A stretch of 64,000 bases of DNA from Enterococcus phage VRE9_2, in sequence record PP680568.1; one strand, 5' to 3'. Below, in pieces: positions 233 to 29,182 of the stretch. Positions within the stretch are counted from its first letter, which is position 1. Each line of letters opens with the position of its first letter. The notes under the pieces were generated by a model. That model searched no databases, was not told the origin of the DNA, and saw only the letters and a program-made list of their open reading frames with translations. The position numbers were made by a program, and so were the translations under genes.

Positions 233-1227
233 TCACTCCAATTTCCTTCATAGGTTTTTAATTCACAATCTCCACATATAGGCATATCAGAAAAAGCATT
301 TGTTTTATTACAAGATAAACATTTTACAACAGATCCATATTTTAATATTTCAGATTCTTTTGGCTCTCCTATATATAAATTCTCTCTTTTTGATTTTATA
401 CCTAAAGTAAAATCATTATATACTTGACTTAAATTTGTTTTATAAGTTTTTATATTATCGTCATGAACTGAAATAAAATTCTCTCCAAGAGAAGAGAAGA
501 AAGTATTTTGTAAAGTATTTATTGTAAATTCTTCAATTCCGTTATTTTTATAGGGATACTGCGTAGATAACATTGCTCCTTTATAATCTTTTGAGAAAAC
601 TCCCAAGCGTCTATAAATTTTTTTATCTACGTATTCAACATCATTAAAATTGGGTTTCTCTGTCATTACATAAGTTAAAAATGTATAATTATCTAAACCT
701 GCAGAATATCCTCCAGTATAATGCTCTCCCATAGGTTTATAACATGTAGTCCATCCTCTACCAACCCCCATCATTATAAAATCATAAGGATGAACAGATA
801 TAACCAAATAACTGGATGGGAGAATATATGAATTTTTTATTTGAGAATACATTAATACAATTTCTTCTCCCAATTCTGGAGTTTGATTAATAACCTTAGA
901 TAATTTTTTGCCAGAAGAATGTTTATTCTCTATTAAATCTGAATCATTTAATAGTCCTGCTAATTTAAAGAAGCCAGCATCTATTTTTCTGGTTTCTTTA
1001 TATCGTTCCTTAAATTCTTTTTTAAAATCTCTTTCTGCTTGTGTTTTTATAGCTTTTATATTATCTATTTTAAAAACTAATCTTAGATTATTATCCATCA
1101 TAGCAATTATTTCTTTTTTCTTTTCAGCAACTTGACTGAAAAAATTTTCATAATTATTATACGAAAAGAGACTAACCCCTTGAGAGAGGTTAATCTTTTC
1201 GTACTGACTTTTCATATTTTCTGTCAA
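208..1227 (-). CDS. Unknown protein, member of a three-paralog family (with 2335..3534 and 4700..6571)
   Basis: 339 aa ORF; shared motifs with the paralogs: ..SVHPYDFIMMGV.RGWTTC.. and ..KIYRRLGVF.. (W-R-R-[LM]-G-x-F). Confidence 0.7.
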   Translation of the reverse strand: MTENMKSQYEKINLSQGVSLFSYNNYENFFSQVAEKKKEIIAMMDNNLRLVFKIDNIKAIKTQAERDFKKEFKERYKETRKIDAGFFKLAGLLNDSDLIENKHSSGKKLSKVINQTPELGEEIVLMYSQIKNSYILPSSYLVISVHPYDFIMMGVGRGWTTCYKPMGEHYTGGYSAGLDNYTFLTYVMTEKPNFNDVEYVDKKIYRRLGVFSKDYKGAMLSTQYPYKNNGIEEFTINTLQNTFFSSLGENFISVHDDNIKTYKTNLSQVYNDFTLGIKSKRENLYIGEPKESEILKYGSVVKCLSCNKTNAFSDMPICGDCELKTYEGNWSDKIGQYTI

Positions 1228-1239
1228 ATTTCCACCATC

Positions 1240-2313
1240 TTACTTTCCGTCATTATTTATAGTTTCAGTATAACGTTCTTTTTGTGATACATCTTCTAAG
1301 TATTTTTCTCGACACTCATCGCATAAATGCGACAATACTTCATTGTCTGTATCAGACCAAGAAACTGTCCCTTTATCTAAAAAGCAAAATTCGCATTGTT
1401 CAACTTCTTTTTTTTTATTGCGACTTTTATAGGGGATAAAACTCGTTTCATCATCGTCATAATTTAGATAATCCGATTCATCATAAACGTCTTCATCTCC
1501 CCAGTAACAATAAGAACCATTTTGATAATAATTAGAATATCCATAGTTACCATATCCAGCATAAGAATCTTCTTTATACTCATAAAATTTAGGATTTTGA
1601 TATTGGTCTTCTAAAATTTCCTTTACTTTTCTCTGGGTCTTATACATTTCGTTAATATAAATGCGTTCATAACATGTGTGTTCATCCATATAGCCTGCCG
1701 ATAAATTTACTCCTGCGAAACCAAATTCAGGACAAACTTGACAAATGTCTGTATAAGATCCATTGTGAGTTTTAAAACCAAAACTATTAATATATTCTTC
1801 AAAATCTGTGTTATCTAAATAATAATAGACAGATTCTCCGAAACCTTTTCGATCCAATTGAATAGCGAAATTAATCTCTGTTAAAGCTGTTTGTACATCT
1901 TCTCCAAAGTAATTTTCTACATTTTTTGTGAAGAAACTAGATCCAATAGTTCCAATTTCCTCATCCCAACAAAATAATACATGAGGACGATAGCCTTGTG
2001 TCAACATATCTAAAATGCTAAAAACTCCACAACGATCATCTCCACCAATACCATCAGGACACCATAAAACATTTTTTTCTTTATCGTGGAAAATAGTTTC
2101 CTCTGTTGGAGCTACTGTATGGACTGTATCCAAATGAGCCAACATAAGAACAGGAATATCTCCTTTAGCATAAATAAAACTACCATCAACACGATAAATA
2201 TCTCTAGAATCATACATTGATTCTATTTGACCTAATAAATAAAAATGAAGCCCCTCTTGTGTCATTTGTAAAATGTTTTTAAAGGTTTGTAAACCTAATT
2301 CTTTCTTTTGCAT
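1240..2313 (-). CDS. M20/M28-family zinc metallopeptidase-like protein with acidic, Cys-rich C-terminal tail
   Basis: HLDTVH (HxD), DGIGGDDRCG, WDEEIG (Glu-Glu) metal-ligand pattern typical of M20/M28 peptidases; C-terminal CxxC..CxxC. Confidence 0.55.
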   Translation of the reverse strand: MQKKELGLQTFKNILQMTQEGLHFYLLGQIESMYDSRDIYRVDGSFIYAKGDIPVLMLAHLDTVHTVAPTEETIFHDKEKNVLWCPDGIGGDDRCGVFSILDMLTQGYRPHVLFCWDEEIGTIGSSFFTKNVENYFGEDVQTALTEINFAIQLDRKGFGESVYYYLDNTDFEEYINSFGFKTHNGSYTDICQVCPEFGFAGVNLSAGYMDEHTCYERIYINEMYKTQRKVKEILEDQYQNPKFYEYKEDSYAGYGNYGYSNYYQNGSYCYWGDEDVYDESDYLNYDDDETSFIPYKSRNKKKEVEQCEFCFLDKGTVSWSDTDNEVLSHLCDECREKYLEDVSQKERYTETINNDGK

Positions 2314-2334
2314 TTTATAAAATTCCCCCTTTTT

Positions 2335-3534
2335 TTAATAATCCCAATCATCTTCGTCGTCCCAATATTCATCTTCATCATAATAAGCGTCTTCATCAAA
2401 AAGACCTCCAACTTCAATCGATCCATCAATAAAGAAATCACAAGTTGGGCTTATAACTGAATCAACACCTACTTCAAAACGAACATTGCATAATTCAGTT
2501 TCATCAGTTTCATCATAAAAATCTTTATTGAAATGTTTTCTTAAGATATTTTCAGAATTATTTTCTCCTTCAACATTGTATTTTTGTTTATCTAAAATAA
2601 TCATTGGAACTTTATTCATAGTCCCATGTGTAATATCATTATAGTGAATTTCACTACTTTCTCTAATAGTATTTTCTGCATCAGAAGAATCAATAAATCC
2701 ATAAGCAACATTATCTTCTCCAAAAGTATCTACAAATAATTTGCGTAAAGCTTTAGTATTATTTTTATTAACGCTTGGATATGAACGAGACAAATAAATA
2801 GCATCTAACTCTGTATTAAACATACCCATTCTACGCCAAATTTTATCTGGAATACTGTCTTGACTACCTAAAATAATTTGACAAATAAAACTTGAACCAT
2901 CTAATAAATAAGAAACTGGTCCAGCACCATAACAACCATCAATAATAGAATGACAAGAAGACCATTCTCTGGTTTTGTTTACAGACATCATTAAAATATC
3001 AAGAGGATCAATAGAAACTTCTAAAACTCCTCGAGCTAATAATGATTCATTAAATGCTGACAAATAAATTTGTATTTGGTTAACTAGTTTTTTATTTTTT
3101 AGAACACGCTTAAGAGACTTAGAAATTTTTGCTCCAGCTTGAAATGATTCGCCTAAAATTTCTTTATTTGTCATAAAACGGTTTTTTTGTAATTCTTCTA
3201 AAGAAAAACTACTAAAATAAAGTGCTATAATTTTTCCTTCATTTTCTTCCATGGTCATAGACTTAATTTTAGATAAAAATGAAGAATGAAAAGCATCTTT
3301 AATCTCTGAATTTGATAATGCGTTTTCAACGCTTCCTTCTAATCTTAATTTATTCCCAAACTTCTGAAAAATAGGAAATTTTGCTTGAGCCCAATCTCTT
3401 GCCCATGCTCGTCTAGTATCTGTATCGAAACCACCATTGATGCTATATAAAATATTATCAATTTCTTCCCAAGATTTTTTCATCATTGGTTCCATCAAAT
3501 TTAATTTTTCTTCGATAGTATATGTTTTTTCCAT
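2335..3534 (-). CDS. Unknown protein, paralog family (see 208..1227); acidic DE/W/Y-rich C-terminus
   Basis: 399 aa; motifs ..IDPLDILMMSV..REWSSC.. and ..KIWRRMGMF.. shared with paralogs. Confidence 0.7.
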   Translation of the reverse strand: MEKTYTIEEKLNLMEPMMKKSWEEIDNILYSINGGFDTDTRRAWARDWAQAKFPIFQKFGNKLRLEGSVENALSNSEIKDAFHSSFLSKIKSMTMEENEGKIIALYFSSFSLEELQKNRFMTNKEILGESFQAGAKISKSLKRVLKNKKLVNQIQIYLSAFNESLLARGVLEVSIDPLDILMMSVNKTREWSSCHSIIDGCYGAGPVSYLLDGSSFICQIILGSQDSIPDKIWRRMGMFNTELDAIYLSRSYPSVNKNNTKALRKLFVDTFGEDNVAYGFIDSSDAENTIRESSEIHYNDITHGTMNKVPMIILDKQKYNVEGENNSENILRKHFNKDFYDETDETELCNVRFEVGVDSVISPTCDFFIDGSIEVGGLFDEDAYYDEDEYWDDEDDWDY

Positions 3535-3561
3535 TGCAAAATCTCCCTTTTTTTTATTTTA

Positions 3562-3804
3562 TTATTGTAAATTAAAATTTACTCCTTGTTTTGTTAAAAA
3601 ATATTTTCGAGGAGTATCAGCAGTTTTGTCTACTAGTCCTTTTTTGTTTAATGAAGTTAATACACCTGGAACACCATTAGGCATCATAAATGCTAATTCT
3701 GCCACACGTTTCGAAAATACTGCATCTTCTTCTTTATCAATATGAGCTTCTTGTAAAGCTTTTAAAACTTGCATACCTTTTTCTGTTAATTTAATTTCTT
3801 CCAT
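3562..3804 (-). CDS. Small protein with C-terminal motif related to the six-member small-protein family
   Basis: 80 aa; ..PGVLTSLNKKGLVDKTADTPRKYFLTKQG resembles ..TPSRLKALKEEGFLEDLGGSPKKYKV of 7021..7389. Confidence 0.45.
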   Translation of the reverse strand: MEEIKLTEKGMQVLKALQEAHIDKEEDAVFSKRVAELAFMMPNGVPGVLTSLNKKGLVDKTADTPRKYFLTKQGVNFNLQ

Positions 3805-4011
3805 TTAAAATCCGCTCCTATTTTTTATTATCAATTCATTTTCTATAATATAATTATAACAAATTGAACTAACTTTTTCAAATTGTGTGTTTACATAAGC
3901 TATCTGACTTTTTGTTTCTTTCATTTAACTTATAATTAATTATATCATTTAATATATAAAAACTCAAATAAAAAATCCCAATCATCTAGATTGGGATTAA
4001 TTTTAAATAAT

Positions 4012-4326
4012 TTATGCTCCAGCTTGACTAACTGTAATTTCAATTGTAGATTGATCAGAAAGAGTAGCTGTTCCTCCAGTTACTTTACCAGATTCGTCTG
4101 TTGTTAAGGCAATAGCCGTAATAGATTTTCCATCTGTACCATTTGCCCCAGCAGCTCCTTTTGCACCGGCATCCCCCTTGTCTCCTTTAGGTCCGGCAGG
4201 TCCAGTCTCACCTGGATCTCCTTTAGGTCCTTTTTGTTCTTGTAAGAAATCTACTAAAGAAGCAAATGATTCTTGTGTCATAGTTTTACCAGTTGCAAAT
4301 AATGCTTTAATTTGTTCTGCGTTCAT
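4012..4326 (-). CDS. Collagen-like Gly-X-Y repeat protein
   Basis: GPKGDPGETGPAGPKGDKGDAGAKGAAGANGTDG triplet repeats. Confidence 0.6.
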   Translation of the reverse strand: MNAEQIKALFATGKTMTQESFASLVDFLQEQKGPKGDPGETGPAGPKGDKGDAGAKGAAGANGTDGKSITAIALTTDESGKVTGGTATLSDQSTIEITVSQAGA

Positions 4327-4387
4327 TTTGTTTCCTCCTATTTTTAAATATATTTGAGAACTTATCTCTTTTTATTATGAAAAAGTC

Positions 4388-4603
4388 TTATTCTGCTTTT
4401 CCAACTTTTGCCTTACCTACTATAGCTTTTCCTACAATAGATTCTTCACCTAATTCTTCTTCTTTTTTATAAGCAATAGCTTTATCCGTAGGACAAATCA
4501 TATAATAGAAATCTTCCGTTTTGTTTTTACGATAATTAATAACCATATAATTTTCTTCATATTCTCGTCCACAATGAGAACATACATAAATATCTTTTTT
4601 CAT
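4388..4603 (-). CDS. Small zinc-ribbon protein with VGKA repeats
   Basis: CSHCGREY...YYMICPTDK; C-terminal VGKAIVGKAKVGKAE. Confidence 0.45.
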   Translation of the reverse strand: MKKDIYVCSHCGREYEENYMVINYRKNKTEDFYYMICPTDKAIAYKKEEELGEESIVGKAIVGKAKVGKAE

Positions 4604-6571: not shown

Positions 6572-6941
6572 AAATGAAAAACTCCCTTTCTTTAACTTAT
6601 ATAAATATTATATCATTTTAAAAATTACTTTTCAAATAATGTTTTTTAAAATCTAAACTTTATTTGAATTTTCGTTTCTAAAACTTGATTACAAAACTAT
6701 TATATAATTTTAAAAAAAGTTTTTCAACCAAGAGCAACAAGGATTTCGCCTCTGACTAAAAACGTATTTGACTTTTTTCGTTTAATATATATTTTTATAA
6801 ATATTTTTTTATATAAAAAGGAAGTTTTTTGTTCGTGCATTACAAATCGGCTCCCCCATCATTGCTCTCTTGGGTTGACTTTTTTATGTTCAATATATAT
6901 AATTAATATAGAGTTTTGAGTAATTCTCAGAGTAAAAATTC

Positions 6942-6970
6942 TTGACTTTTTGATTATTATATGTTATAAT
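6942..6970 (+). promoter_or_regulatory. Consensus sigma-A-type promoter (TTGACT-N17-TATAAT) for the rightward operon
   Basis: TTGACT at 6942-6947, TATAAT at 6965-6970, TG-extended -10 (TGTTATAAT). Confidence 0.6.
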
Positions 6971-7389: not shown

Positions 7390-7408
7390 GACAAAATGTC
7401 TTGGTTTT
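7381..7408 (+). terminator. Rho-independent terminator hairpin (AAGACA-AAA-TGTCTT + T run)
   Basis: Inverted repeat followed by GGTTTTTT; same hairpin recurs at 24321 and 29496. Confidence 0.55.
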
Positions 7409-7473
7409 TTCAGAGAAACTTTCTTATATTGAGTTTTAAATAAACTACCGATATAGGAGAGGATGAAAGTTTT

Positions 7474-9514
7474 ATGTTAAATGTAATGAAAAAAGATGGT
7501 CATATTGAAATTTTTGACACGAAGAAAATTCAGGAGGCAATTTTAGCTTCTGCAAGGAAAATTCTTTCTAATGAAGAAGAATATGATATGCAGCAAAAAG
7601 CTTTAATTATTGCGAATGAGGTAGCTCGTTTCTTAAATTCAACTGAAGATGAAAATGCAGTTATTATGACATCTAAAATTCATAATGTTGTTCTGGAGAT
7701 TCTATCCAAAGAATGGGAAGTCGTTGGAGCTTCTTATGGAATGTATAGAAACTATAGAAAACAAATGGCTAAAACATTTTTAAAAAGTTATGAGGAATCT
7801 GAAACTGTACTCCACGATGGAGATAAAGAAAATGCTAATAAAGATAGTGATTTGAATAGTACAAAACAAGCTTTAATTGCAAATAATAATATGCGTGGTT
7901 ATATGGAAACATTTGAAATGGATAAAGATTGGATTGAAGCTCATAAACAAGGTTGGATACACATTCATGATTTAGCAGAGCGTTATTTGCGCCAGCAAAA
8001 TTGTTGTTTGTTTAACATGGCAGGTTTATTAGATGGTGGGTTCCAATTAAATGGAACAGTTTATGCAGAGCCTAAACATTTTGATTCTGCTATTAATGTA
8101 GTAGGAGATGTTACTTTGTTTGCATCTGCACAGCAATATGGCGGTTTTACTATTCCTGAAATAGATACTGTTTTAGCTAAATACGCTGAAAAAAGTTATC
8201 AATCAAATTTAAAATTTATTTTAGATAAATTTGGAGATATTACTAATGAAGATATTATGGAAACACTAGAACAAACAGCTTACGACATGACTGTTAGAGA
8301 GCTAGAACAAGGCTTTCAAGGCTTTGAAACAAAATTAAATACAATTAGTAATTCTTTAGGACAAATTCCTTTTGTAACAATTACTTTTGGTTTGGATACA
8401 ACTCAATGGGGAAGAGAAATTTCTAAAGCTATTTTGAATGTACGGATTAAAGGGATTGGAGAAAATAAATCAACAGCGGTATTTCCTAAATTATCTTTTT
8501 TACATAGAAAGGAAATTAATGGAAATCCAGAATCTCCTAATTATGATATTAAACAATTAGGGATTCAATGTTCTCGATTAAGATTATATCCTGATTGGCT
8601 GTCCCTAGATAGTGGAAATCTTGCAGAAGTATATGAAAGATCTAATCAAGTTGTATCTGGGATGGGATGTCGAGCATATTTAAGTCCATTTTGGGACGAG
8701 CAAGGAAATGAAATTTACACTGGACGATCTAATATTGGAGCCGTTACATTGAACCTTCCTAAAATTGGTTTAGAATCAAAAGGGGATTGGAATAAATTTT
8801 TTGATCTAGTAGATAAATATTCTGATATTGTTTTTGCTATTCATGAAGATTATTATACTAAAATTAGTAAAACAAAAGGTTCTTCTAACCCTCTATATTT
8901 CTGTGAAGGTGGAGCTTGGACAAAAGTAGGCTATGATGAAGAAGTTGGGAAGATATATGAAGCTTCAACTGCTTCATTGGGATATATTGGAATTTATGAA
9001 ACATTAAAAGCAATGAATGTTTCAAAAGAAGAATATCTTAAATATGGGACTAAAATTGTTGCATATTTGAAAAAATTAACAGAAAAAGCTACAATTAATT
9101 ATAATCATTTATATGCACTTTATTCAACCCCAGCAGAAAGTTTATGCTATAGATTCCAGAAAATTAATCGTAAATATTATGGAGTAATTGAAGATGTAAC
9201 TGATAGAGAGTACATTACAAATTCTTTCCATGTTCCAGTATGGGAAGATGTTAGCGTTCCTGAAAAAATTGCTTTTGAAGCACCATTCCATAAACTTGCA
9301 ACAGGTGGGCGAATTTCTTATAATGAATTTGTTTATGGAGTAGATAATTCTGTGCTAGAACAAGCAATTAACTTTGCTATGGAAAATGGAATGTATTATG
9401 GAGTTAATGTTGTTGCAGGAACTTGTAATCAATGTGGTTATAGTGGAGATTTCCATGACAATTGTCCTAAATGTGGTACCCATGATATTACAGTAGTAAC
9501 GAGAGTTTGTGGGT
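7474..9514 (+). CDS. nrdD: Anaerobic ribonucleoside-triphosphate reductase NrdD, exon 1 (interrupted at the glycyl-radical RVCG|Y codon)
   Basis: N-terminal ATP-cone; ORF ends ..VVTRVCG followed by intron; last exon-1 base T at 9514 joins AT at 10541 to give Tyr. Confidence 0.8.
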
Positions 9515-10540
9515 TAACTATAAAAAGTTCTCTTTAAAAAACTTAAAGGCTCACGTAAAACAGGATAAATTGCGGGAACATCCTAAAGTTCTTAACTACT
9601 AAGCAAATATAGTGATATATTTGTGGCTGAACTAATCACTCAGGTATAGTAAAAAGGTTAAGAAATTGGACAATCCGCAGCGATACCTCTCATTAGAGAG
9701 AGACGTTCAACGACTATAAACCTGCTCTGGCTTAATTTTAAGCTAAATGTATAGTCTAGTCCGAGATAATATGTAGTATAATAGGAGTTGTTACAGTATA
9801 GATTTTTATGTATACATTCATTATACTAAAGATACAAAAGAAATATTTTATGTAGGTAAGGGTATAAATAACAGAGCTTATTCAAAAGTTAAACGAAATA
9901 AGTTTTGGTGGAATATTGTTAATAAGCATGATTATTGCTTAAAAATTTTATATTCAAATTTATCAGAAGAAAAGGCTTTCCTTTTAGAGAAGGAATTAAT
10001 TAAAAATCTAAAAGCTATTGGATTAGCAAAAGCAAACTTCCATGAAGGAGGTTCAGGAGGAAATACAATGAAATACGCCCCTCTTGGAGAAATCCAAAAG
10101 TGGAAAGAAAGTTTATGCTCCGCTCAACAAAATTTAGATTTAGAAACTAGACAAAGATTAAGTCAAATTCGTAGTCTAAATGTAAGCGGAGATAAAAATC
10201 CTCAATTTAATAAGCCTGGATTTAATACAGGTCGCAAATTTTCTGATGAACATAAAAATAAAATTAGCAATGCTTTAAAACAATATTCTATGACAGAAGA
10301 ACACAAACAAAATATAACAAAATCACACAACAAATATCTATTAAAGGTTATTACAGATAATGGAGAAGAAATGATTTTTAGTTCTCTAAAGGAAGCTTCT
10401 GAAACACTAGGAGTTCCTAAGACTACATTATCTAGTTGTGGACATGGAAATAATGGCAGAAACAAAACCCATTATTCTTCCAAATATAAACTTACTGCAT
10501 ATTATCTAACATAAGTATCCCGAAAGGGACGGTAGATTCG
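9515..10540 (+). mobile_element. Group I intron (approx. 1026 nt) in nrdD carrying a GIY-YIG homing endonuclease ORF
   Basis: Interrupts conserved RVCGY motif; contains P7-like GTTCAACGACTA (9705-9716); ends in G (10540); spliced product restores ..RVCGYLSFDQIHGDSRYNPGKQKEVKERVKHNFK. Confidence 0.7.
9777..10514 (+). CDS. Intron-encoded GIY-YIG homing endonuclease with NUMOD/IENR-like C-terminal DNA-binding region; no canonical start codon upstream of the catalytic motif
   Basis: Open frame from 9777 reads ..FYVYIHYTKDTKEIFYVGKGINNRAYSKVKRNKFWWNIVNKH..EKELIKNL (GIY..YIG..R..H..E..N), in frame with tracked ORF 10068..10514. Confidence 0.65.
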   Translation, partial: YNRSCYSIDFYVYIHYTKDTKEIFYVGKGINNRAYSKVKRNKFWWNIVNKHDYCLKILYSNLSEEKAFLLEKELIKNLKAIGLAKANFHEGGSGGNTMKYAPLGEIQKWKESLCSAQQNLDLETRQRLSQIRSLNVSGDKNPQFNKPGFNTGRKFSDEHKNKISNALKQYSMTEEHKQNITKSHNKYLLKVITDNGEEMIFSSLKEASETLGVPKTTLSSCGHGNNGRNKTHYSSKYKLTAYYLT

Positions 10541-10632
10541 ATTTATCCTTTGATCAGATTCATGGTGACTCACGTTATAATCCTGGTAAACAAAAAGAAG
10601 TTAAAGAAAGAGTTAAACATAATTTCAAATAA
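10541..10632 (+). CDS. nrdD: nrdD exon 2 (C-terminal 30 codons after the glycyl-radical site)
   Basis: Reads (Y)LSFDQIHGDSRYNPGKQKEVKERVKHNFK*, typical NrdD C-terminus. Confidence 0.7.
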
Positions 10633-10644
10633 AAGGAGAAATAT

Positions 10645-10938
10645 ATGAAAGAAAAGGAACAAGAGGTTATTGAAAAGTTATATGCTTATGTATCAGAAAT
10701 GGATATTGTTTTAGCAGAAAAGAAACTACAAACAATTTCTTTAATACTTTTTATTCTTATGGGAGGATATTGTTTAATCTTTTCTTGCCCTGTATTTATT
10801 AATATTGTTTCTTTATCCGGCTTAGCTTATTTTGCTTTTACTTTATTGGCAAATTTAATGCTTGAACAACTTTTGGATAAAGAAATTTCAAAAAATGAAG
10901 TTTTATTAGAACAAATTCTTAAAAATAAAGAGAAATAG
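10645..10938 (+). CDS. Small membrane protein
   Basis: 97 aa with two hydrophobic helices. Confidence 0.5.
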   Translation: MKEKEQEVIEKLYAYVSEMDIVLAEKKLQTISLILFILMGGYCLIFSCPVFINIVSLSGLAYFAFTLLANLMLEQLLDKEISKNEVLLEQILKNKEK

Positions 10939-10959
10939 AAAGAAAGGAAGTTTTTTAAA

Positions 10960-11124
10960 ATGATGTTTATTGCAGTTTTTTGTGGGATTTGTATCCTATT
11001 ATTAATTGGTTCTGGAATGAAAGCAAATATAGGAAGAGATACTACGAGATTAGAGAATATGGCTTACTTAATGTTTGCCATATTCTTAATTTTGTTTATC
11101 CTAATTTTAATTGGGGGAGCATAA
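10960..11124 (+). CDS. Small membrane protein (54 aa), not in ORF track
   Basis: ATG after AAAGGAAG RBS; hydrophobic MMFIAVFCGICILLLIG... Confidence 0.35.
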   Translation: MMFIAVFCGICILLLIGSGMKANIGRDTTRLENMAYLMFAIFLILFILILIGGA

Positions 11125-11125
11125 T

Positions 11126-11647
11126 ATGGCTTATTTACACAATATAAAAAAATATGATATGGAAAACAGTGGTTTAAAAGGAGCCTCAGTTTCTTTATGG
11201 TTTAATCATTGTCCACATCATTGCCCAGGATGCTGGAATTCAGAAACTTGGGAAAGAAATGAAAACTTATATGAGGATAACCAAGAGGTAATAGAAGAGG
11301 TGCTCGATGGTCTTGATGGAGGACCAATGAAATTAAATACTCTTGCTCTTTTGGGAGGAGACCCTCTCAGTCCTAAAAATATAAAAGATACATTAGAAAT
11401 TTTATCGGCAGTTAAAACAAAAAGACCAGAGACAGAGGTTATCTGTTGGACTGGTTTTACTTGGGAACAAGTAACTAAAAGTAAGTTACTTAAACCAGTA
11501 TTAGAATATTTAGATGTATTAATTGATGGTCGTTTTATGATAGACCGTAGAATCGAAGGTAAAAAATATGGTTCTGACAATCAAAGATGTATTGATGTGA
11601 AAAAATCTCTTCAATGTGATAAAATATATTTAATGGAGGGATTTTAA
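11126..11647 (+). CDS. nrdG: Anaerobic ribonucleotide reductase activating protein NrdG (radical SAM)
   Basis: CPHHCPGCWN (CxxxCxxC) near N-terminus; GGGGAG RBS before ATG 11126; follows nrdD. Confidence 0.8.
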   Translation: MAYLHNIKKYDMENSGLKGASVSLWFNHCPHHCPGCWNSETWERNENLYEDNQEVIEEVLDGLDGGPMKLNTLALLGGDPLSPKNIKDTLEILSAVKTKRPETEVICWTGFTWEQVTKSKLLKPVLEYLDVLIDGRFMIDRRIEGKKYGSDNQRCIDVKKSLQCDKIYLMEGF

Positions 11648-11955
11648 TGTTTGGTCTTAATAAAAAAACAGAAAAAAATTCTGTGAAAAAGTATCGTAAA
11701 AAACCTGTTGAAGTAGAAGTATGGCTTTTTAATAGAGAAAATTTGGAAACAGCAGAAAGTTGGGTACGCAAGTATTCAGATAAAATGGTTTTATTTTCTC
11801 AATATGGTGGAGAAAAAATTTGGATAGAAATAAAAACTTTAGAAGGTGTAATGAAAGCTTCTGAAGGAGACTATATTATAAAAGGAATCAATGGAGAATT
11901 ATATCCTTGTAAACCAGATATTTTTCTCAAAACTTATGAAGAGGTGACAAATTAA
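11647..11955 (+). CDS. Hypothetical protein
   Basis: 102 aa ORF coupled (ATGA overlap) between nrdG and the trxB-like gene. Confidence 0.5.
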   Translation: MFGLNKKTEKNSVKKYRKKPVEVEVWLFNRENLETAESWVRKYSDKMVLFSQYGGEKIWIEIKTLEGVMKASEGDYIIKGINGELYPCKPDIFLKTYEEVTN

Positions 11956-23217: not shown

Positions 23218-23293
23218 ACTTGAGTGGTCTTAAAAAGGAAAGACGCATGGTTTAATCTTCCATGAGACGTTGGTTCGAGTCCAACCTCAAGAA
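23218..23293 (+). tRNA. tRNA-like, atypical (A-A mismatch at acceptor 1-72; 9-nt anticodon loop TTTAATCTT); isotype undetermined
   Basis: Acceptor ACTTGAG/CTCAAGA, D-arm GTCT/AGAC, canonical T-arm GTTGG-TTCGAGT-CCAAC; first gene after a promoter. Confidence 0.35.
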
Positions 23294-23295
23294 TA

Positions 23296-23550
23296 TCAGG
23301 ATTGGCTATCCTTTCACCTTATAGCTAGAGGTTGATAAATATAAAGTGGAATTAACCACAGTTGGCTGCTCCCTAGGTTAAAGAAGATACCTATTGGGTC
23401 GGGGCATAAGCTAAGTTAACTAATAAACAACTTCTTTTAGTTAGCTTTTCTCACGAGTGATTGTTGAGGTTCAATTCCTTCTTAACCTATGGGCGGGACA
23501 ACACTCTATCGGAGATAAAAATATATAATTTAGTTTAATATTCTCGAGAA
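23296..23550 (+). ncRNA. Structured non-coding segment within the tRNA cluster (inverted repeats AAGCTAAGTTAACTAA...TTAGTTAGCTT; pseudo T-arm GAGGTTCAATTCC)
   Basis: No ORF; multiple hairpins; position analogous to small stable RNAs in phage tRNA clusters. Confidence 0.25.
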
Positions 23551-23554
23551 TGGT

Positions 23555-23649
23555 TGAGATATGGCGGAAAGGTAGACGCAAGGAGAGTCTCCCCATTGGA
23601 GACCCCTGTGCATGACGATGCAGTGTAGGTTCGAATCCTACTATCTCAG
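23555..23649 (+). tRNA. Type-II tRNA-like (Leu-type D-arm TGGCGGAAAGGTAGACGC, long variable arm); irregular anticodon-arm region, isotype unresolved
   Basis: Acceptor TGAGATA/TATCTCA, T-arm GTAGG-TTCGAAT-CCTAC, variable hairpin TGCAT-GACG-ATGCA; extra nucleotides between D and anticodon arms. Confidence 0.35.
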
Positions 23650-23650
23650 T

Positions 23651-23700
23651 TAAATAGGGACTAGAGCTAATTTATTTTAGCCAGTCCTTATCCCGAAAGG
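23651..23700 (+). other. Inter-tRNA hairpins incl. GNRA tetraloop TCCCGAAAGGGA
   Basis: GGACT..AGTCC hairpin then TCCC-GAAA-GGGA; same tetraloop hairpin occurs at the nrdD intron 3-prime end (10517-10530). Confidence 0.4.
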
Positions 23701-23770
23701 GAAAAATAATTTGACATTTTGAACATAATATGTTATAATTATTATATAATAAAGATAAGAAATATAAAAC

Positions 23771-23842
23771 GGCTTGTTGGTCAAGAAGTTAAGACGCTCG
23801 ACTTTCACTCGGGAATCACAGGTGCAAATCCTGTACAAGTCA
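23771..23842 (+). tRNA. tRNA-Glu (anticodon TTC)
   Basis: Acceptor GGCTTGT/ACAAGTC, anticodon arm CTCGA-CTTTCAC-TCGGG, T-arm ACAGG-TGCAAAT-CCTGT. Confidence 0.65.
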
Positions 23843-23931
23843 TTAACATTATTTGAAAAAAATCTTTCAAAATGTTATAATTAATATGTAAAAAGAAATA
23901 AAAAAAATTATTTTAAAAGGAGAGGTTCATC

Positions 23932-24324
23932 ATGGAAAAACAAACTAAAGCAGATATGTATCGTAATGCAGCAAAATTGTTGGAAGTAAATGCTCCTGAA
24001 TATGCAGAAATGTTATTGGAAGATGCTCAAAGAATTGAAGCTCGTAACGCAAGTCGTCGAAATGTTGATACCAAAGTTCAAAAAGAAAATAAACACATCG
24101 CTGCTTTAGTAATTGAGTTTTTCCATAATGATGCTGAAGATGGAATCGCTTATGACAGTGGTGAAATTGCAAATGCAGTTGGGATCGAAGTTTCTCCTCA
24201 GAAAATGTCAGCAATTATGCGTTTAGTTGGGGATGAAGTAGATAAAATGAACCAAGCTACGAATAATAAAGATCATGTTGGATATAAAAAGAAAGGAACT
24301 GAATTAGTTCCTGATGAAAAATAG
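23932..24324 (+). CDS. Small protein of the six-member paralog family (MEKQTKA.. N-terminus, C-terminal SPQKMSAIMRLVGDE..KKKG motif)
   Basis: 130 aa; N-terminus similar to MEFIMEK.. of 45220..45621 and 50746..51192. Confidence 0.55.
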   Translation: MEKQTKADMYRNAAKLLEVNAPEYAEMLLEDAQRIEARNASRRNVDTKVQKENKHIAALVIEFFHNDAEDGIAYDSGEIANAVGIEVSPQKMSAIMRLVGDEVDKMNQATNNKDHVGYKKKGTELVPDEK

Positions 24325-24371
24325 GACAAAATGTCTTAATTAAATATCCCCATATTTTATTGGGGATACAC

Positions 24372-24446
24372 CAGGGTATAGGAGAATTTGGTTAATCCGC
24401 TGCATTTGGGATGCAGAGATTGTTGGTTCAAATCCAGCTACCCTGA
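24372..24446 (+). tRNA. tRNA-Pro (anticodon TGG)
   Basis: Acceptor CAGGGTA/TACCCTG (C1-G72), anticodon arm CTGCA-TTTGGGA-TGCAG, T-arm GTTGG-TTCAAAT-CCAGC. Confidence 0.75.
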
Positions 24447-24522
24447 TTTGAACAACGTGTTAGAACGTTGGGCGTGAAGGGATTTATCCTATGAAGGGAT
24501 TTATCCTAACACGTTTAAACAT

Positions 24523-24593
24523 TCACCTATGATGAAATGGTATCATGACTGGCTGTTAACCAGTTCTTGTAGGTTCGAATCCTGCTGGGTGAG
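24523..24593 (+). tRNA. tRNA-Asn (anticodon GTT)
   Basis: Acceptor TCACCTA/TGGGTGA, D-arm ATGA/TCAT, anticodon arm ACTGG-CTGTTAA-CCAGT, T-arm GTAGG-TTCGAAT-CCTGC. Confidence 0.65.
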
Positions 24594-24599
24594 TATTTT

Positions 24600-24682
24600 G
24601 CGAGAGTGGCGGAATTGGCAGACGCACTAGATTTAGGATCTAGCGTTTTCATAACGTGTGGGTTCAAGTCCCACCTCTTGTA
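24600..24682 (+). tRNA. tRNA-Leu (anticodon TAG), type II
   Basis: D-arm TGGCGGAATTGGCAGACGC, anticodon arm CTAGA-TTTAGGA-TCTAG, variable hairpin, T-arm GTGGG-TTCAAGT-CCCAC. Confidence 0.8.
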
Positions 24683-24691
24683 TAATAAAAT

Positions 24692-24775
24692 GGAGAGTCC
24701 CTGTTGGCTAAAGGAAGAATGTTTTGAAAGCATTTGGCGGTAACACGTCCAAGGGTTCGATTCCCTTACTCTCCT
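24692..24775 (+). tRNA. tRNA-Ser (anticodon TGA), type II
   Basis: Acceptor GGAGAGT/ACTCTCC, anticodon arm AATGT-TTTGAAA-GCATT, long variable arm, T-arm AAGGG-TTCGATT-CCCTT. Confidence 0.7.
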
Positions 24776-24811
24776 TAAAGAATCTTACAGCAAATATTAA
24801 TACTTTTAATA

Positions 24812-24867
24812 ATATTTGGGAAAAAATAAGGTCTAGGTTCGACCCCTAGTATAAGTTTGGTACAACT
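24812..24867 (+). ncRNA. About 56-nt armless tRNA-like element (acceptor + D-like hairpin + canonical T-arm, no anticodon arm)
   Basis: ACTTTTA..TATAAGT acceptor pairing (one T-T), hairpin TATTT-GGGAAA-AAATA, T-arm CTAGG-TTCGACC-CCTAG. Confidence 0.3.
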
Positions 24868-24932
24868 TATATGGTGTAATGGTAGCACACAAAAGATAGA
24901 TTCTTGTTTTTGGGGAAGGTACCTCCCCAGTA
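24846..24932 (+). ncRNA. tRNA-like segment with canonical 5-prime half (acceptor ACTTATA, U8, D-arm GTGT-AATGGTA-GCAC) but non-canonical 3-prime half (GGGGA-AGGTACC-TCCCC hairpin, no matching acceptor strand)
   Basis: Direct reading of sequence; anticodon region CAAAAGATAGATTCTTGTTTTTG does not fold canonically. Confidence 0.25.
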
Positions 24933-24935
24933 TTT

Positions 24936-25019
24936 GGAGGATTATGCAAATTGGTGAAGCAAGTGGTCTGTAAAACCATGACGTAAGATACATTGGGGGT
25001 TCGAATCCCTTGTCCTCCA
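24936..25019 (+). tRNA. tRNA-Tyr (anticodon GTA), type II
   Basis: Acceptor GGAGGAT/GTCCTCC, anticodon arm GTGGT-CTGTAAA-ACCAT, long variable arm, T-arm GGGGG-TTCGAAT-CCCTT (two G-T pairs). Confidence 0.7.
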
Positions 25020-25020
25020 T

Positions 25021-25048
25021 AGACTGCCTTTGTCAAGCAGTCGAATGT
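25021..25048 (+). terminator. Hairpin GACTGC-CTTTGTCAA-GCAGTC after tRNA-Tyr
   Basis: Perfect 6-bp inverted repeat. Confidence 0.35.
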
Positions 25049-25179
25049 AACTAATTTTTTCATTAAATAAATATCAAATTGTGGCTGATTTCTACAGATT
25101 CAGAGCGGAGCATCCCCGCAGGTTGGGCATACTACAGTCCCCCATGACTTTCATGGGTTGCACATAGTTAGGAGGTAGC

Positions 25180-25365
25180 ATGATGTATTTAAAATTCATT
25201 GGTTTAAACGGAAGTTTAGGTTTAGAGAAGGACAAGATATACTTTGTTACCTCTGAGATAACTGAATATTATATTATTTTGAGAATACAGGGTGTTCACG
25301 GTAAGACAGTAATGTGTCCATACGAAACATTAGAAAAAATGTTAGAAAATTGGCAGGTCTGTTAG
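25180..25365 (+). CDS. Hypothetical small protein inside tRNA cluster
   Basis: 61 aa, GGAGG RBS 6 nt upstream. Confidence 0.45.
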   Translation: MMYLKFIGLNGSLGLEKDKIYFVTSEITEYYIILRIQGVHGKTVMCPYETLEKMLENWQVC

Positions 25366-25450
25366 TGTGTAAATAGCAAGGTCTGCATAAAACCTAAGAA
25401 ACAGCACGCACAGAAGATTATGTATTGTCTCCCTTTTGGACAAACATTTT

Positions 25451-25522
25451 GGCGCTATGGTCAAGCGGTTAAGACACTGGTCTTTCTAACCAGAATCCCG
25501 AGTTCGAATCTCGGTAGCGTCA
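25451..25522 (+). tRNA. tRNA with anticodon loop CTTTCTA (anticodon TTC, Glu-like; U at position 37 is atypical)
   Basis: Acceptor GGCGCTA/TAGCGTC, D-arm TGGTCAAGCGGTTAAGACA, anticodon stem CTGGT/ACCAG, T-arm CCGAG-TTCGAAT-CTCGG. Confidence 0.6.
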
Positions 25523-25744
25523 TAAAGAACGATACAGCAAACCTATTAAAATATTACAGAAGAGATTATGTAAGGAGCCGTAGATACCAACCGAAAAATC
25601 TACGAGTTCAATTATGGTTGGCGTTTGAGTTTTTTCTAGGTACTTTCCTTGAGTTACGTTAACACTCGAAAAAGGTCTAAACCTCGTTCTTGATAAATAA
25701 ACACAACTTTCCTTTCTTCCTGTCCATGTCACTGGACAGGTAAC
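25523..25744 (+). ncRNA. Structured spacer: interleaved inverted repeats CGTAGAT..CCAACC..ATCTACG..GGTTGG (pseudoknot-like) and 8-bp hairpin CCTGTCCA..TGGACAGG
   Basis: Direct reading; only spurious overlapping ORFs here. Confidence 0.3.
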
Positions 25745-25830
25745 GCGGGTATGGTGGAATTGGCAGACACATCAGACTTAAGATCTGACGAGAGGTATCT
25801 CTCATGCAGGTTCGACTCCTGCTATCCGTA
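25745..25830 (+). tRNA. tRNA-Leu (anticodon TAA), type II
   Basis: D-arm TGGTGGAATTGGCAGACAC, anticodon arm TCAGA-CTTAAGA-TCTGA, variable hairpin GAGAG..CTCTC, T-arm GCAGG-TTCGACT-CCTGC. Confidence 0.8.
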
Positions 25831-25903
25831 TAAAGAACCTAACAGCAATCACATTTAAAGGGATAATAGTATATCTAATAATATATAGGTTCTTGTTTTT
25901 TAT

Positions 25904-25976
25904 AGCTGGCGGCTGGTTGGATATCAGGGCAGGGTTCATAACCCAGCATAACTCAGTTCGATTCTGAGGCGTAGCA
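25904..25976 (+). pseudogene. tRNA-like with CAT anticodon loop (TTCATAA; Met/Ile2-type) and canonical T-arm but unpairable acceptor stem; possible pseudo-tRNA
   Basis: T-arm CTCAG-TTCGATT-CTGAG, anticodon stem CAGGG/CCCAG (A-A mismatch), 3-prime strand GCGTAGC has no complementary 5-prime strand. Confidence 0.3.
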
Positions 25977-25989
25977 ATATTATTGAGGA

Positions 25990-26158
25990 AGAGCTAACCT
26001 GGCGAAAATATGCTCAGAGGAAAAAACCTGGCGAAAAATTAGCCCCTAGTCAAATTTCCACTTTGGCGGCTAGGTTGAGGCGCACAATAGGCATAAAGAC
26101 ACCTCGTAAAAGGGCAAGCGCAGTGTCCTTACCCAAATAAAACAGCGGCAGCCTTTAC
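25990..26158 (+). ncRNA. Non-coding spacer with direct repeat AACCTGGCGAAAA x2 (25996, 26025) and GC-rich paired segments
   Basis: No ORF; repeats read directly. Confidence 0.25.
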
Positions 26159-26230
26159 GCTGGTTTCGTATAATGGCTATTACAGTTGACTTGTAATCTT
26201 CAAATGGGAGTTCGATTCTCTCAACCAGCA
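26159..26230 (+). tRNA. tRNA-Thr-like (anticodon loop CTTGTAA, anticodon TGT) with imperfect anticodon stem (GTTGA/TCTTC, 2 mismatches)
   Basis: Perfect acceptor GCTGGTT/AACCAGC, D-arm GTA-TAATGGCTAT-TAC, T-arm GGGAG-TTCGATT-CTCTC. Confidence 0.5.
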
Positions 26231-26327
26231 TTTATAAATGAATGAGGCATTGGTTAGGTCTAAAATAGATATAGGGGTATTTAGTTATCTACGGATGCTA
26301 AATATTGTGTAATTCATTTTATTTTTT

Positions 26328-26400
26328 TCGATGATTCGTTCAAATGGATAGGACGCTAGACTACGGATCTAGTAATAGAGGTTCAAGTCCTCTATCATCG
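26328..26400 (+). tRNA. tRNA-Arg (anticodon ACG)
   Basis: Acceptor CGATGAT/ATCATCG, anticodon arm CTAGA-CTACGGA-TCTAG, T-arm AGAGG-TTCAAGT-CCTCT. Confidence 0.75.
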
Positions 26401-26469
26401 GTAGTATAAGGAATGATATTTCGCTTATACGAAACGTTAAGAGATTCTCACACTGACGTCCCAATAGAG

Positions 26470-26510
26470 AAGGGTTTGAATAATCTTCCTTCTCTTGGTT
26501 TTTAATTTAT
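26470..26510 (+). terminator. Rho-independent terminator AGAGAAGG..CCTTCTCT + TGGTTTTT
   Basis: 8-bp stem followed by T-rich tract, between tRNA-Arg and tRNA-Trp. Confidence 0.5.
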
Positions 26511-26581
26511 GCGCTGTTGGTGTAGTGGTATCACATCTGGCTCCAAACCAGAAAATGGGGGTTCGATTCCTTCACGGCGTG
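26511..26581 (+). tRNA. tRNA-Trp (anticodon CCA)
   Basis: Acceptor GCGCTGT/ACGGCGT, anticodon arm TCTGG-CTCCAAA-CCAGA, T-arm GGGGG-TTCGATT-CCTTC. Confidence 0.75.
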
Positions 26582-26702
26582 TTAGTATTTATCCTAATAT
26601 TTATGATACCATGTAGAAGATATAAATAATAGGAAATAGGCTAGTCGTACAGAAAATGCCTATAGCAGCTTTAATAGCTGTCGCTTGATTTTTTAGCTAT
26701 TA

Positions 26703-26773
26703 CACCCCTATAATTTAATGGTAAAATACTGTGCTGATAACGCAGATTCCCTTGTTCGATTCAAGGTAGGGGT
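26703..26773 (+). tRNA. tRNA-Ile (anticodon GAT)
   Basis: Perfect acceptor ACCCCTA/TAGGGGT, D-arm ATTT/AAAT, anticodon arm CTGTG-CTGATAA-CGCAG, T-arm CCTTG-TTCGATT-CAAGG. Confidence 0.75.
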
Positions 26774-26808
26774 ATTTCTCTTTAATAAAAATAGAGGAAG
26801 GTAAAATA

Positions 26809-27300
26809 ATGTTTAGATGTGAAATTTGTGGCAAGGAATTTGACAGTCCCCTTAAACTAGGAGGGCACAAATCCTCTCATTCAAGAGGAAAGAGAAAAGA
26901 CTGCAAAAAAGAAATTAATTGTTTATATTGTAATAAAACTATGACTGTCAATAAATCAGATAAAAAACAATATTGTTCTGTTGAATGTTTTAGAGCTCAA
27001 GTACAAGAAGATAAAAACAATCGTTTTGTTGTAATTAGAAGCGAGAAACATGGCAATCATGTTTTAGACATTACTGTCAAAGAACTAGAAGACTATCGGC
27101 AAAAACAATTAGTTTGTGAGATTTGCGGCAACAAAGAAATCATCAAAAATGGAACTATAAAATTATCAGTCGATCACAACCATGAAACTTATAAATTTAG
27201 AGGTTTGCTATGCTATGCATGTAATGTTAAATTAGCTTGGTTAGAGAAAGAGTGGGATAGCATTAAATCTTACTTAGAAAGAGATAATTTTAAGTTTTAG
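26809..27300 (+). CDS. HNH endonuclease (phage endonuclease VII-like), probable homing/selfish endonuclease at edge of tRNA cluster
   Basis: ..LSVDHNHETYKFRGLLCYACN.. (DH-NH...RGLLC..CN motif) plus N-terminal CxxC pairs. Confidence 0.65.
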   Translation: MFRCEICGKEFDSPLKLGGHKSSHSRGKRKDCKKEINCLYCNKTMTVNKSDKKQYCSVECFRAQVQEDKNNRFVVIRSEKHGNHVLDITVKELEDYRQKQLVCEICGNKEIIKNGTIKLSVDHNHETYKFRGLLCYACNVKLAWLEKEWDSIKSYLERDNFKF

Positions 27301-27394
27301 TATTAATTTTTTTTTATTTAGATAGGAGAGCTTGGATAATATGAAGAAAAGATTAAACAAACTATAAATATCTTATAAAGGAGGTATTTATAAT

Positions 27395-27646: not shown

Positions 27647-27736
27647 AACTCCCTAAGATAGGGAGTTTTTTATTTGAAAAATTTAATTTAAAATGATATA
27701 ATTAATTATAAGGACAAATAAAAAGGAGATTCAAAA

Positions 27737-28383: not shown

Positions 28384-28451
28384 TTTGAAATTATTAATAC
28401 AATATATTATAATTATATTATAAGATAAATAAAAGAAAGGAAGTTGTTTAA

Positions 28452-29121: not shown

Positions 29122-29182
29122 CTTTTTTAGCATAACATGTTATAATATTTATATAAGTTAGGAAGAAAAAACTTCCTAATAT

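Follow-up and report, generated by a model that had tools for sequence, protein, structure and literature searches.

A probable group I intron with a GIY-YIG endonuclease gene lies one base past the glycyl-radical codon of nrdD in Enterococcus phage VRE9_2

We analysed a 64,000-nucleotide (nt) stretch of Enterococcus phage VRE9_2 (PP680568.1), here called the window; all coordinates are positions in it, on the plus strand. Within nrdD, the gene for the class III ribonucleotide reductase (RNR), we identify an insertion at 9515-10540 that is very probably a mobile group I intron, in a phage related to VRE9_3, H1 and EF1. The point of insertion is exact, removal of the insert restores the host open reading frame (ORF), the insert has group I fold features held by covariation, its own ORF belongs to a homing-endonuclease family, and sister phages are polymorphic for its presence. 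It lies a single base beyond the codon of the radical glycine of NrdD.

Results

An insertion beside the radical glycine

Read from 7474, the nrdD frame runs to ..CPKCGTHDITVVTRVCG (..VVTRVCG), continues as LTIKSSL and stops at TAA 9535-9537; unspliced RNA would thus be read as a 687-residue protein ending ..RVCGLTIKSSL. The segment 10541-10632 encodes (Y)LSFDQIHGDSRYNPGKQKEVKERVKHNFK followed by a stop. Joining T9514 to the AT of 10541-10542 creates a TAT tyrosine codon and restores RVCGY, and removal of 9515-10540 leaves a 2,133-nt ORF for a 710-residue NrdD. An earlier note on this DNA had proposed a split nrdD with this join, and its coordinates prove exact. The intron-less allele of VRE9_3 is an uninterrupted nrdD of 2,133 nt whose product is identical to the spliced VRE9_2 protein at 700 of 710 residues. 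Across the 562 positions of Pfam NRDD, the spliced protein matches 1-562 at 461 bits and the unspliced one 1-541 at 436 bits; ATP-cone and Gly_radical are also matched in the spliced NrdD. With an identity of this order and the family coverage completed, the insertion is far beyond chance.

Megablast of 7400-11700 against the phage collection returned five Enterococcus phages at 95.6-96.4% identity, each covering 76% of the query, which is all but 9515-10540. An identity of 96% at the DNA level to phages of Enterococcus bears out the earlier description of a Firmicutes-type phage. Across the junction the sequence of VRE9_3 is ..GTTTGTGGAT ATCTTTCC.., and VRE9_2 reads ..GTTTGTGGGT, then the 1,026 nt, then ATTTATCC... 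The first base of the intron is T and that of the 3' exon A, and the 5' exon ends in T and the intron in G; because the flanking bases differ at both ends, the insertion is fixed at exactly 9515-10540 and cannot be slid. The exact 687-residue exon 1 ORF had no match in public assemblies.

A tblastn comparison with T4 nrdD places RVCG-Y of VRE9_2 over RRTCG-Y of T4, where the glycine, counted from the C-terminus, is residue 580 of 605. Gly580 is the published radical site of T4 NrdD. This alignment and the Gly_radical match support both the identification of the gene as nrdD in the earlier note and that of the radical glycine, which in VRE9_2 is Gly680 (GGG, 9511-9513). The intron interrupts the codon for Tyr681, the counterpart of T4 Tyr581, after its first base. 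The earlier placement "exactly at the glycyl-radical codon" is therefore right in that the insertion adjoins the radical glycine and one base off in that it falls within Tyr681, a difference that is biologically immaterial. We refer to this position below as the CG-Y site.

A group I core held by compensatory changes

A local Rfam scan of 1.3 kb matches RF00028 at 9497-9765 with 45.9 bits (E 3.4e-10). Short local scans of this kind were needed for detection: a scan of the whole window at the gathering threshold missed the nrdD intron, though it reported a second group I intron at 63583-63880, and a combined 12-kb scan of the EF5 and CB457P1 loci (L002, L003) also missed. The covariance-model alignment supports the proposed fold from P3 to P8, taking in P3, P4, P5, P6, the J6/7-P7 consensus GUUCAACGACUA, P8 and the P7' consensus UAUAGUC. 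The P7-like motif picked out in the earlier note, GTTCAACGACTA at 9705-9716, is the J6/7-P7 consensus of RF00028. The insert does end in G (G10540), as do all inferred relatives at the same site. The GAAA-capped 3' hairpin recurs at the equivalent place in all relatives of the same ribozyme lineage, on the compensatory stems CUAG/CUAG, UUGG/CCAA and UCAG/CUGA. Unconstrained minimum-free-energy (MFE) folding of the ORF-deleted intron with RNAfold recovered P1, P4, P5, P5a, P5b, P5c, P6 and P8.

Covariation was measured in a MAFFT alignment of four homologues (VRE9_2, L006, CB457P1 and L011) over the 56 pairs of the P1-P8 structure. Partners are paired in 94.5% of cells, against 26-46% when they are slid by 1-3 columns, and both partners have changed in 20 pairs, compared with 0-7 when slid; none of 500 shuffles reaches any observed measure. 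The signal is concentrated in P5, P5a, P5b, P5c, P6 and P8. MAFFT misaligned P3 in two sequences; by eye this helix is CAGG/CCUG in VRE9_2 and ACCAU/AUGGU in CB457P1. Taken together, the Rfam match, the canonical splice-site features, the covariation of core helices and the precise absence of the insert from sister phages uphold the earlier identification as a group I intron.

A separate observation concerns the P1 loop, where a 23-nt insert (AAAAGUUCUCUUUAAAAAACUUA, approximately 9523-9545) is present only in the endonuclease-bearing copies, VRE9_2 and L006. It can pair with exon positions 9501-9508, a pairing that Rfam read as P1 and that competes with the canonical P1.

An endonuclease gene under purifying selection

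Within the intron a frame is open for 245 codons (9777-10514), beginning just after TAG 9774-9776. It matches Pfam NUMOD3 at 22.0 bits (cut-off 20.4), the I-HmuI NUMOD-like family PF22083 at 26.8 bits (cut-off 27) and PHROG 314, 'homing endonuclease', with E 9e-17. A phmmer search of the Protein Data Bank (PDB) with the single endonuclease sequence gave noise only. We built a family profile from a 36-member alignment, namely the VRE9_2 endonuclease and 35 database relatives, in which E64 and N80 are invariant and Y6, F17-Y18, G20 and R26 are conserved in at least 90%. Against the PDB this profile finds the solved GIY-YIG enzyme 9u75 (E 2e-4) and also touches I-HmuI 1u3e and the I-TevI DNA-binding domain 1i3j (E 0.034); four of the 36 members match PF01541 and five match PF22945. 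The AlphaFold (AF2) model has a mean predicted local distance difference test score of 79.8, with the N-terminal domain above 90, and Foldseek ranks I-HmuI 1u3e at the top, with the PD-T4-3 GIY-YIG nuclease at probability 1.0 and the UvrC GIY-YIG domain at 0.72. The Pfam and PHROG profiles, the family profile and Foldseek thus converge on the GIY-YIG plus NUMOD endonuclease that the earlier note had named.

Compared with the copy at locus L006, the ratio of nonsynonymous to synonymous divergence (dN/dS) is 0.17 for 9798-10067 and 0.34 for the C-terminal part, at a synonymous divergence (dS) of 0.65 over the whole ORF. The value of 0.17 shows purifying selection on the domain that precedes the first ATG. 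Despite this dS, the 57 nt of 9804-9860, which encode the GIY-YIG motifs, are identical between VRE9_2 and L006; an out-of-frame, ATG-initiated ORF of 15 codons (9808-9855) overlaps the identical stretch.

Related introns and a second ribozyme lineage at the CG-Y site

No record in the phage collection carries the VRE9_2 nrdD intron together with its ORF. Three independent sources hold the same intron and ORF, namely IMG/VR (genome L009/L253), ENA (metagenome contig L187) and Logan (contigs L005), and a 77%-identical copy sits in a different nrdD (L006/L007); IMG/VR holds just one further genome with the VRE9_2 endonuclease. The best DNA match to the core, 76% identical, falls within the region annotated as nrdD in Enterocloster phage CB457P1 (L003, OP172753). 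There ..ARRTCG is followed by T-TAAC..GGCTCACGT.. (the hyphen marking the splice site), with 36.6 bits in Rfam (E 1e-7), no ORF, and a second exon that we infer to read (Y)RFVHLGDNEN before its stop. At this locus (L003 1365-3506) the nrdD coding sequence in GenBank does not stop at the 5' splice site but continues into the intron, and neither the intron nor the short 3' exon is annotated. An exact-pattern scan of IMG/VR gave five more loci: a VRE9_2-like genome (94.5% identical, with identical intron and endonuclease), the CB457P1-like phages L008 and L012, the ORF-less L011, and L010, a different nrdD in which the same-site intron combines a small core with an HNH-type ORF located in P8.

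Bacterial genomes and metagenomes were scanned with a pattern of 17 specified bases plus a variable gap, for which we estimate about 2,000 chance matches in 596 Gb; the pattern was short, and most matches arose by chance. Filtering for an upstream Cys codon and a downstream P7 motif leaves at least 13 genuine loci among the matches listed. These include Clostridium cuniculi, a Clostridium sp. metagenome-assembled genome (MAG), a C. perfringens MAG, Clostridiaceae OF42-15pH9A and several metagenome contigs. In OF42-15pH9A the intron-bearing nrdD forms an operon with nrdG, and farther upstream within the same 8 kb are ORFs resembling rubrerythrin and desulfoferrodoxin (identified by N-terminal sequence only), a setting which suggests a cellular gene and not a prophage.

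An nhmmer search with the VRE9_2 core, from which exon and guide had been removed, recovers the L006, CB457P1 and Clostridium types (E 1e-9 to 1e-57); among these the ORF-less CB457P1 and Clostridium nrdD-nrdG introns score E 1e-9 to 1e-15. The same query does not find L010, L163 or L197, and two ribozyme lineages therefore occupy the CG-Y site. Members of the second lineage resemble the T4 sunY intron, with 75% identity over the 5' 107 nt (z = 10 against shuffles; the unrelated second intron of the window, as a control, gives z = 2.9). They share with T4 the P9 hairpin, CUGCAU..AUGCAG, which comes after P7', and match it by nhmmer at E about 1e-3. In L197 the HNH ORF is reduced to a remnant. 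Three ORF states are thus seen at the site: GIY-YIG in the P9 region, HNH in P8, and none. On these sequence comparisons it is largely established that at least two sequence-unrelated group I lineages occupy the CG-Y junction of nrdD, which would make it a recurrent, unrecognised homing site. Our literature searches turned up neither an intron at the glycyl-radical codon nor one in Clostridium nrdD; full-text coverage of the literature is incomplete, and this is not proof of novelty.

Two further observations concern multiply interrupted genes. The T4 sunY core matches by nhmmer at several places in the nrdD regions of L010, L163 and L197, and in L197 (JAEIGA010037608, reverse complement, about 3380-3950) further T4-like introns follow ..RAMYP and ..SPMG, so that three or more group I introns lie in these phage nrdD genes. 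The C. cuniculi nrdD (L058, NZ_SMUS01000012, reverse complement 983-4400) is apparently interrupted twice, by a GIY-YIG-like ORF of 243 residues (MIIYKATNIINNKVYIGQT.., 1878-2609) between NrdD fragments and by an ORF-less intron at the CG-Y site.

Presence/absence polymorphism and exon markers

Sister phages 94-96% identical to each other are polymorphic for the intron at the CG-Y site. Intron-bearing alleles (VRE9_2, L009) carry the exon markers GAC AAT..ACC upstream (9460-9482), GGG T-AT TTA at the junction and CGT downstream (10575), whereas the intron-less ones read GAT AAC..ACT upstream, GGA or GGG and then T AT CTT at the junction, and CGC downstream. The changes at the junction are synonymous and improve both P1 (G9513-C9550) and P10; the GGA allele would mispair. 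Such a pattern would be expected of co-conversion or of selection for splicing. We regard this pattern and the polymorphism as circumstantial evidence of cleavage and homing; the genomes are few, and the markers may be shared by ancestry.

Weighing the intron model against its alternatives

Several observations weigh against reading 9515-10540 as a mobile group I intron. The Rfam score stays under the gathering cut-off of 50 bits, a shortfall that is expected because the 717-nt ORF displaces the 3' part of the model, the P9 region. P1 and P7, like P4, are invariant among the four aligned copies, which makes covariation uninformative there; P10 is just 4 bp; and for P9.0 and P9 the MFE folds of the 3' region gave alternative pairings with P7'. 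There is no P2 (only GUAAAA separates P1 from P3) and no P7.1/P7.2 (only AA 9719-9720 separates P7 from P3'), and because there is space for neither we do not endorse the label "group IA" of the earlier note. On the side of the endonuclease, the VRE9_2 sequence by itself falls short of the Pfam GIY-YIG family, its best direct match being LEM-3 GIY-YIG at E 0.013. No in-frame ATG, GTG or TTG precedes codon 97, and the first ATG is at 10068; the earlier note was correct that the insert encodes the ORF, and the absence of a canonical start codon had escaped it. An in-frame ATG-TAG at 9771-9776 stands directly upstream of the open frame in every copy, and the case for the AUA start described next draws on two lineages only.

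In the simplest reading, translation of the endonuclease probably begins at a conserved AUA codon (ATA 9798), 10 nt past AGGAG. The AGGAG is identical in the 77%-identical L006/L007 copy, and the spacer before ATA varies: the 15 bases TATAATAGGAGTTGT after the TAG are identical between VRE9_2 and L006, and the following six differ at four positions. The ATA is conserved in both, the codon after it differs, and the GIY-YIG motif begins thereafter. The methionine of homologous enzymes (M-x-x-x-VY.H, for example MEHFVYIH..) aligns with ATA 9798 and not with the upstream ATG. A sigma-70 promoter scan upstream of the ORF found nothing, the TATAAT at 9777-9782 being without a -35 partner. AUA initiation, or reinitiation after the AUG-UAG mini-ORF, could act as a built-in brake on expression of a toxic nuclease, a suggestion to which we give slightly less than even weight.

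A start farther upstream, with the rest of the intron model kept, strikes us as unlikely. The endonuclease would then be made from ATG 9771 or ATG 9747, by amber suppression, by TAG-to-Gln recoding, or by termination and reinitiation after a nine-codon mini-ORF (9747-9776). That the ATG-TAG is kept in every copy fits such a route, as does the rarity of TAG as a stop in the window (one of 27 long ORFs). Two public collection proteins, P0001 and P0002 (99% and 77% identical), even carry Gln at this position, reading MQYNRS.. over ATG TAG TAT. However, the DNA behind them (L005 301-1068; L006 297-1040) reads TAG; the proteins had been translated by a table in which TAG is Gln, so their N-terminal extensions are spurious, an artefact of gene calling on short contigs. 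None of the 17 tRNAs of the window has the CUA anticodon of an amber suppressor and the standard code leaves 27 ORFs of 200 codons or more open, which makes genome-wide recoding of TAG unlikely. The alignment of the homologues' methionine with ATA also argues for the start at AUA, and the invariance of the 15 bases that follow the TAG, next to six that vary freely, is what one expects of a regulatory signal. We also rejected TAG 9774-9776 as a nonsense mutation of CAG, every DNA copy having TAG.

Decay of the element would account for the missing start codon and for the low Rfam score: the endonuclease would be dead, the ribozyme perhaps inactive, and nrdD a pseudogene or the source of a truncated 687-residue protein. 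Close relatives thrive without the intron, and related introns at the same site, such as that of L197, hold degenerate endonuclease remnants. We nevertheless consider this quite improbable. Both exons are intact and match a functional-looking homologue at 700 of 710 residues, and the core helices are all intact and held by compensatory changes across lineages. The ORF has stayed open for 245 codons in two lineages at the dS and dN/dS values given above, and ATA and AGGAG are conserved in both. Least credible of all, and in our judgement very improbable, is that the insert is a free-standing endonuclease cassette dividing nrdD into two genes, as mobE does nrdA in Aeromonas phage Aeh1, or an intein or an assembly artefact. 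Intron-less split RNR genes and nrdD inteins are on record for phages (PMC3653736), and 1,026 nt is a multiple of three. Yet exon 2 has 30 codons, no start codon or ribosome-binding site, and begins in mid-codon; the nrdD frame stops seven codons into the insert, which an intein could not do; the flanks of the ORF fold as a covarying group I core; and the same structure recurs in several independent assemblies. A mobile group I intron is the reading that we retain.

Coordinates and other features of the window

Table 1. Features of the nrdD locus and its intron (positions in the window)
Feature	Position	Strand	Description
nrdD exon 1	7474-9514	+	Residues 1-680 and base 1 of Tyr681; Pfam NRDD, ATP-cone, Gly_radical; co-linear with VRE9_3 nrdD
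P1, 5'-exon strand GUGGGU	9509-9514	+	Pairs with GCUCAC 9549-9554; splice-site U9514 in U9514.G9549 wobble
Group I intron	9515-10540	+	1,026 nt; missing base for base from VRE9_3, H1 and VRE9_4
P10 candidate	UAAA 9544-9547 with 3'-exon UUUA 10542-10545	+	UUUA only in intron-bearing alleles
Internal guide sequence GCUCAC (P1, 3' strand)	9549-9554	+	GGCUCACGU kept in all same-site introns
Catalytic core	9561-9756	+	RF00028 match, covariation, MFE fold
P3	9561-64/9721-24	+	
P4	9571-75/9675-79	+	
P5	9581-83/9668-70	+	
P5a	9589-96/9657-64	+	
P5b	9604-11/9616-23	+	GUGA loop
P5c	9627-30/9640-43	+	
P6	9687-91/9696-9700	+	
P7	9712-18/9750-56	+	
P8	9729-34/9739-44	+	
Shine-Dalgarno-like AGGAG	9783-9787	+	10 nt upstream of proposed AUA start (ATA 9798)
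Homing-endonuclease ORF	9798-10514	+	238 codons and TAA; N-terminal GIY-YIG-like, NUMOD3, C-terminal I-HmuI-like helix-turn-helix
3'-terminal hairpin UCCC-GAAA-GGGA (P9.x element)	10518-10529	+	
Terminal guanosine (omega-G), 3' splice site	10540	+	
nrdD exon 2	10541-10632	+	Bases 2-3 of Tyr681, residues 682-710, TAA stop
nrdG	11111-11647	+	Activase generating the Gly680 radical; context, outside the intron; Pfam Fer4_12, Radical_SAM; annotated nrdG in VRE9_3 and EF5

The window holds a second mobile-intron locus at 62037-63880. RF00028 matches it at full length with 95.1 bits (63583-63880), and a 295-residue ORF at 62831-63718 with a Pfam GIY-YIG match (E 3.5e-8) overlaps the 5' part of the Rfam match. 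The preceding ORF of 242 residues (62037-62765) ends abruptly and has no Pfam match, features which make a further split gene probable; its 3' exon would lie past the end of the window. The plus strand carries 17-18 clustered tRNA genes (23218-32579), among them two tRNA-Glu(UUC) and one tRNA-Ile(UAU) and no suppressor tRNA. Tandem sigma-70-like promoter matches at 6875-6903 and 6942-6970 (11/12; TTGACT-17-TATAAT) lie upstream of a 122-residue ORF at 7021 and of nrdD.

Discussion

We propose that splicing, which we infer from structure, follows the usual course of group I introns. The exon end GUGGGU would pair with the guide GCUCAC into P1, with its U9514.G9549 wobble, and an external guanosine bound in P7 would attack after U9514. 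The short P10 (UUUA with UAAA) may align the 3' exon, and the freed exon would then attack after G10540, joining T to AT to give ..RVCG-Y-LSFDQ.. The predicted product is a 710-residue class III RNR with its radical glycine and C-terminal tail. Homing is suggested by what is known of the endonuclease family: the product of the gene in the 3' periphery of the intron would cut intron-less nrdD of co-infecting phages near the CG-Y site, and repair would copy in the intron plus flanking exon markers. An AUA start 10 nt after AGGAG would keep expression of the endonuclease low.

The mechanism is ordinary: a phage RNR gene hosts a group I intron that encodes a homing endonuclease. The known workings of such elements are unchanged by our findings; the site appears to be undescribed and is routinely mis-annotated. 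What the sequences add is modest: in phages and in Clostridium chromosomes the CG-Y site is common to two or more ribozyme lineages, and the endonuclease, which lacks a canonical start codon, is under purifying selection. In VRE9_2, CB457P1 and Clostridium genomes nrdD is called truncated, and the 30-residue C-terminal exon past the radical glycine is lost. Inventories of class III RNR in phages and Clostridium are accordingly wrong at the catalytic C-terminus where they are built on such calls. The site is another clean case of the rule that mobile introns favour the most conserved codons of genes for nucleotide metabolism; in this instance the radical residue is one base away. It also offers a series at one position, comprising intron-less genes, an ORF-less intron, a GIY-YIG intron, an HNH intron and an intron with an endonuclease remnant, in phages and bacterial chromosomes, which should be useful for studies of the homing cycle and of exchange between phage and host. 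If its AUA start is real, the endonuclease is a simple, testable case of expression attenuation.

The T4 nrdD (sunY) intron is the obvious comparison, and the earlier note had described the VRE9_2 intron as mirroring it. This stands for the gene, for the GIY-YIG class of the endonuclease (I-TevII in T4) and for the layout. The T4 intron is 1,033 nt long (PMC1995217), against 1,026 nt in VRE9_2; it follows ..TATGAGT, and I-TevII starts 236 nt in and ends about 20 nt before the 3' end, an arrangement very similar to the 243-nt core, ORF and 26-nt tail of VRE9_2. Both introns begin UAAC, both split a TAT tyrosine codon after the T, and their guide sequences, GCUCAU in T4 and GCUCAC in VRE9_2, are one base apart. 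The likeness does not extend to the site, the endonuclease lineage or the ribozyme. T4 is interrupted at Tyr177 of 605 (..QAYE-YEVNTL.., about residue 280 in VRE9_2) and VRE9_2 at Tyr681 of 710, 400 residues apart, and the two endonucleases, which are not orthologous, have only NUMOD3-type repeats in common (BLASTP E 0.002). An nhmmer search with the T4 core, up to E 10, does not find the VRE9_2 intron. Between P7 and P3', where VRE9_2 has just AA, T4 has additional hairpins that we read from the sequence alone as P7.1/P7.2. A direct relationship to the sunY ribozyme, which the UAAC start and the guide might suggest, was rejected, there being no similarity outside P1; the guides are alike because the target sequences are similar.

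Closer kin are the introns of CB457P1 and of Clostridium (C. cuniculi, OF42-15pH9A, the C. perfringens MAG), which share with VRE9_2 the 5' splice site ..TGTGGGT-TAAC.., the guide sequence, a homologous core and the GAAA-capped 3' hairpin. They differ in being about 335-345 nt long, in having a longer 3' tail and in lacking both an ORF and the 23-nt P1-loop insert. They occur in a Clostridia phage or a cellular nrdD-nrdG operon, are unannotated, and have 3' splice sites placed from coding only. Nearer by host, the sister phages EF1 and EF5 (exons 95.6% identical) are intron-less at the CG-Y site and carry in the same gene an insertion of about 1,036 nt annotated as 'HNH homing endonuclease # Phage intron'. 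It lies elsewhere, between ..LYSTP and AESLCY.. (nrdD nt 1655-1660), and holds an HNH in place of a GIY-YIG ORF. In EF5 it spans L002 2230-3265, equivalent to window positions of about 9128-9133, which are uninterrupted in VRE9_2, and scores 16.6 bits in Rfam (E 0.19).

The VRE9_2 endonuclease has the architecture of I-TevI, I-BmoI and I-BanI, with an N-terminal GIY-YIG domain, a NUMOD3-type linker and a C-terminal helix-turn-helix; it has low sequence identity to all characterised enzymes, and it lacks a canonical start codon. In T4, hairpins that occlude the ribosome-binding site hold back translation of the intron endonucleases (PMC2988022); the VRE9_2 enzyme, if throttled, would be so by its AUA start. 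More broadly, RNR genes are a frequent home of such elements. The curators of RNRdb put the number of group I introns in RNR genes above 100 (PMC2795772), and among 128 RNR-bearing phage genomes nrdD was the RNR gene most often split, with six cases including T4 and Lactococcus phage 949 (PMC3653736). The introns of Twort nrdE, SPbeta bnrdE/F and B. anthracis nrdE likewise sit at catalytic-site codons, beside critical and highly conserved RNR residues (PMC3653736), in class Ib genes, as the VRE9_2 intron does in a class III gene.

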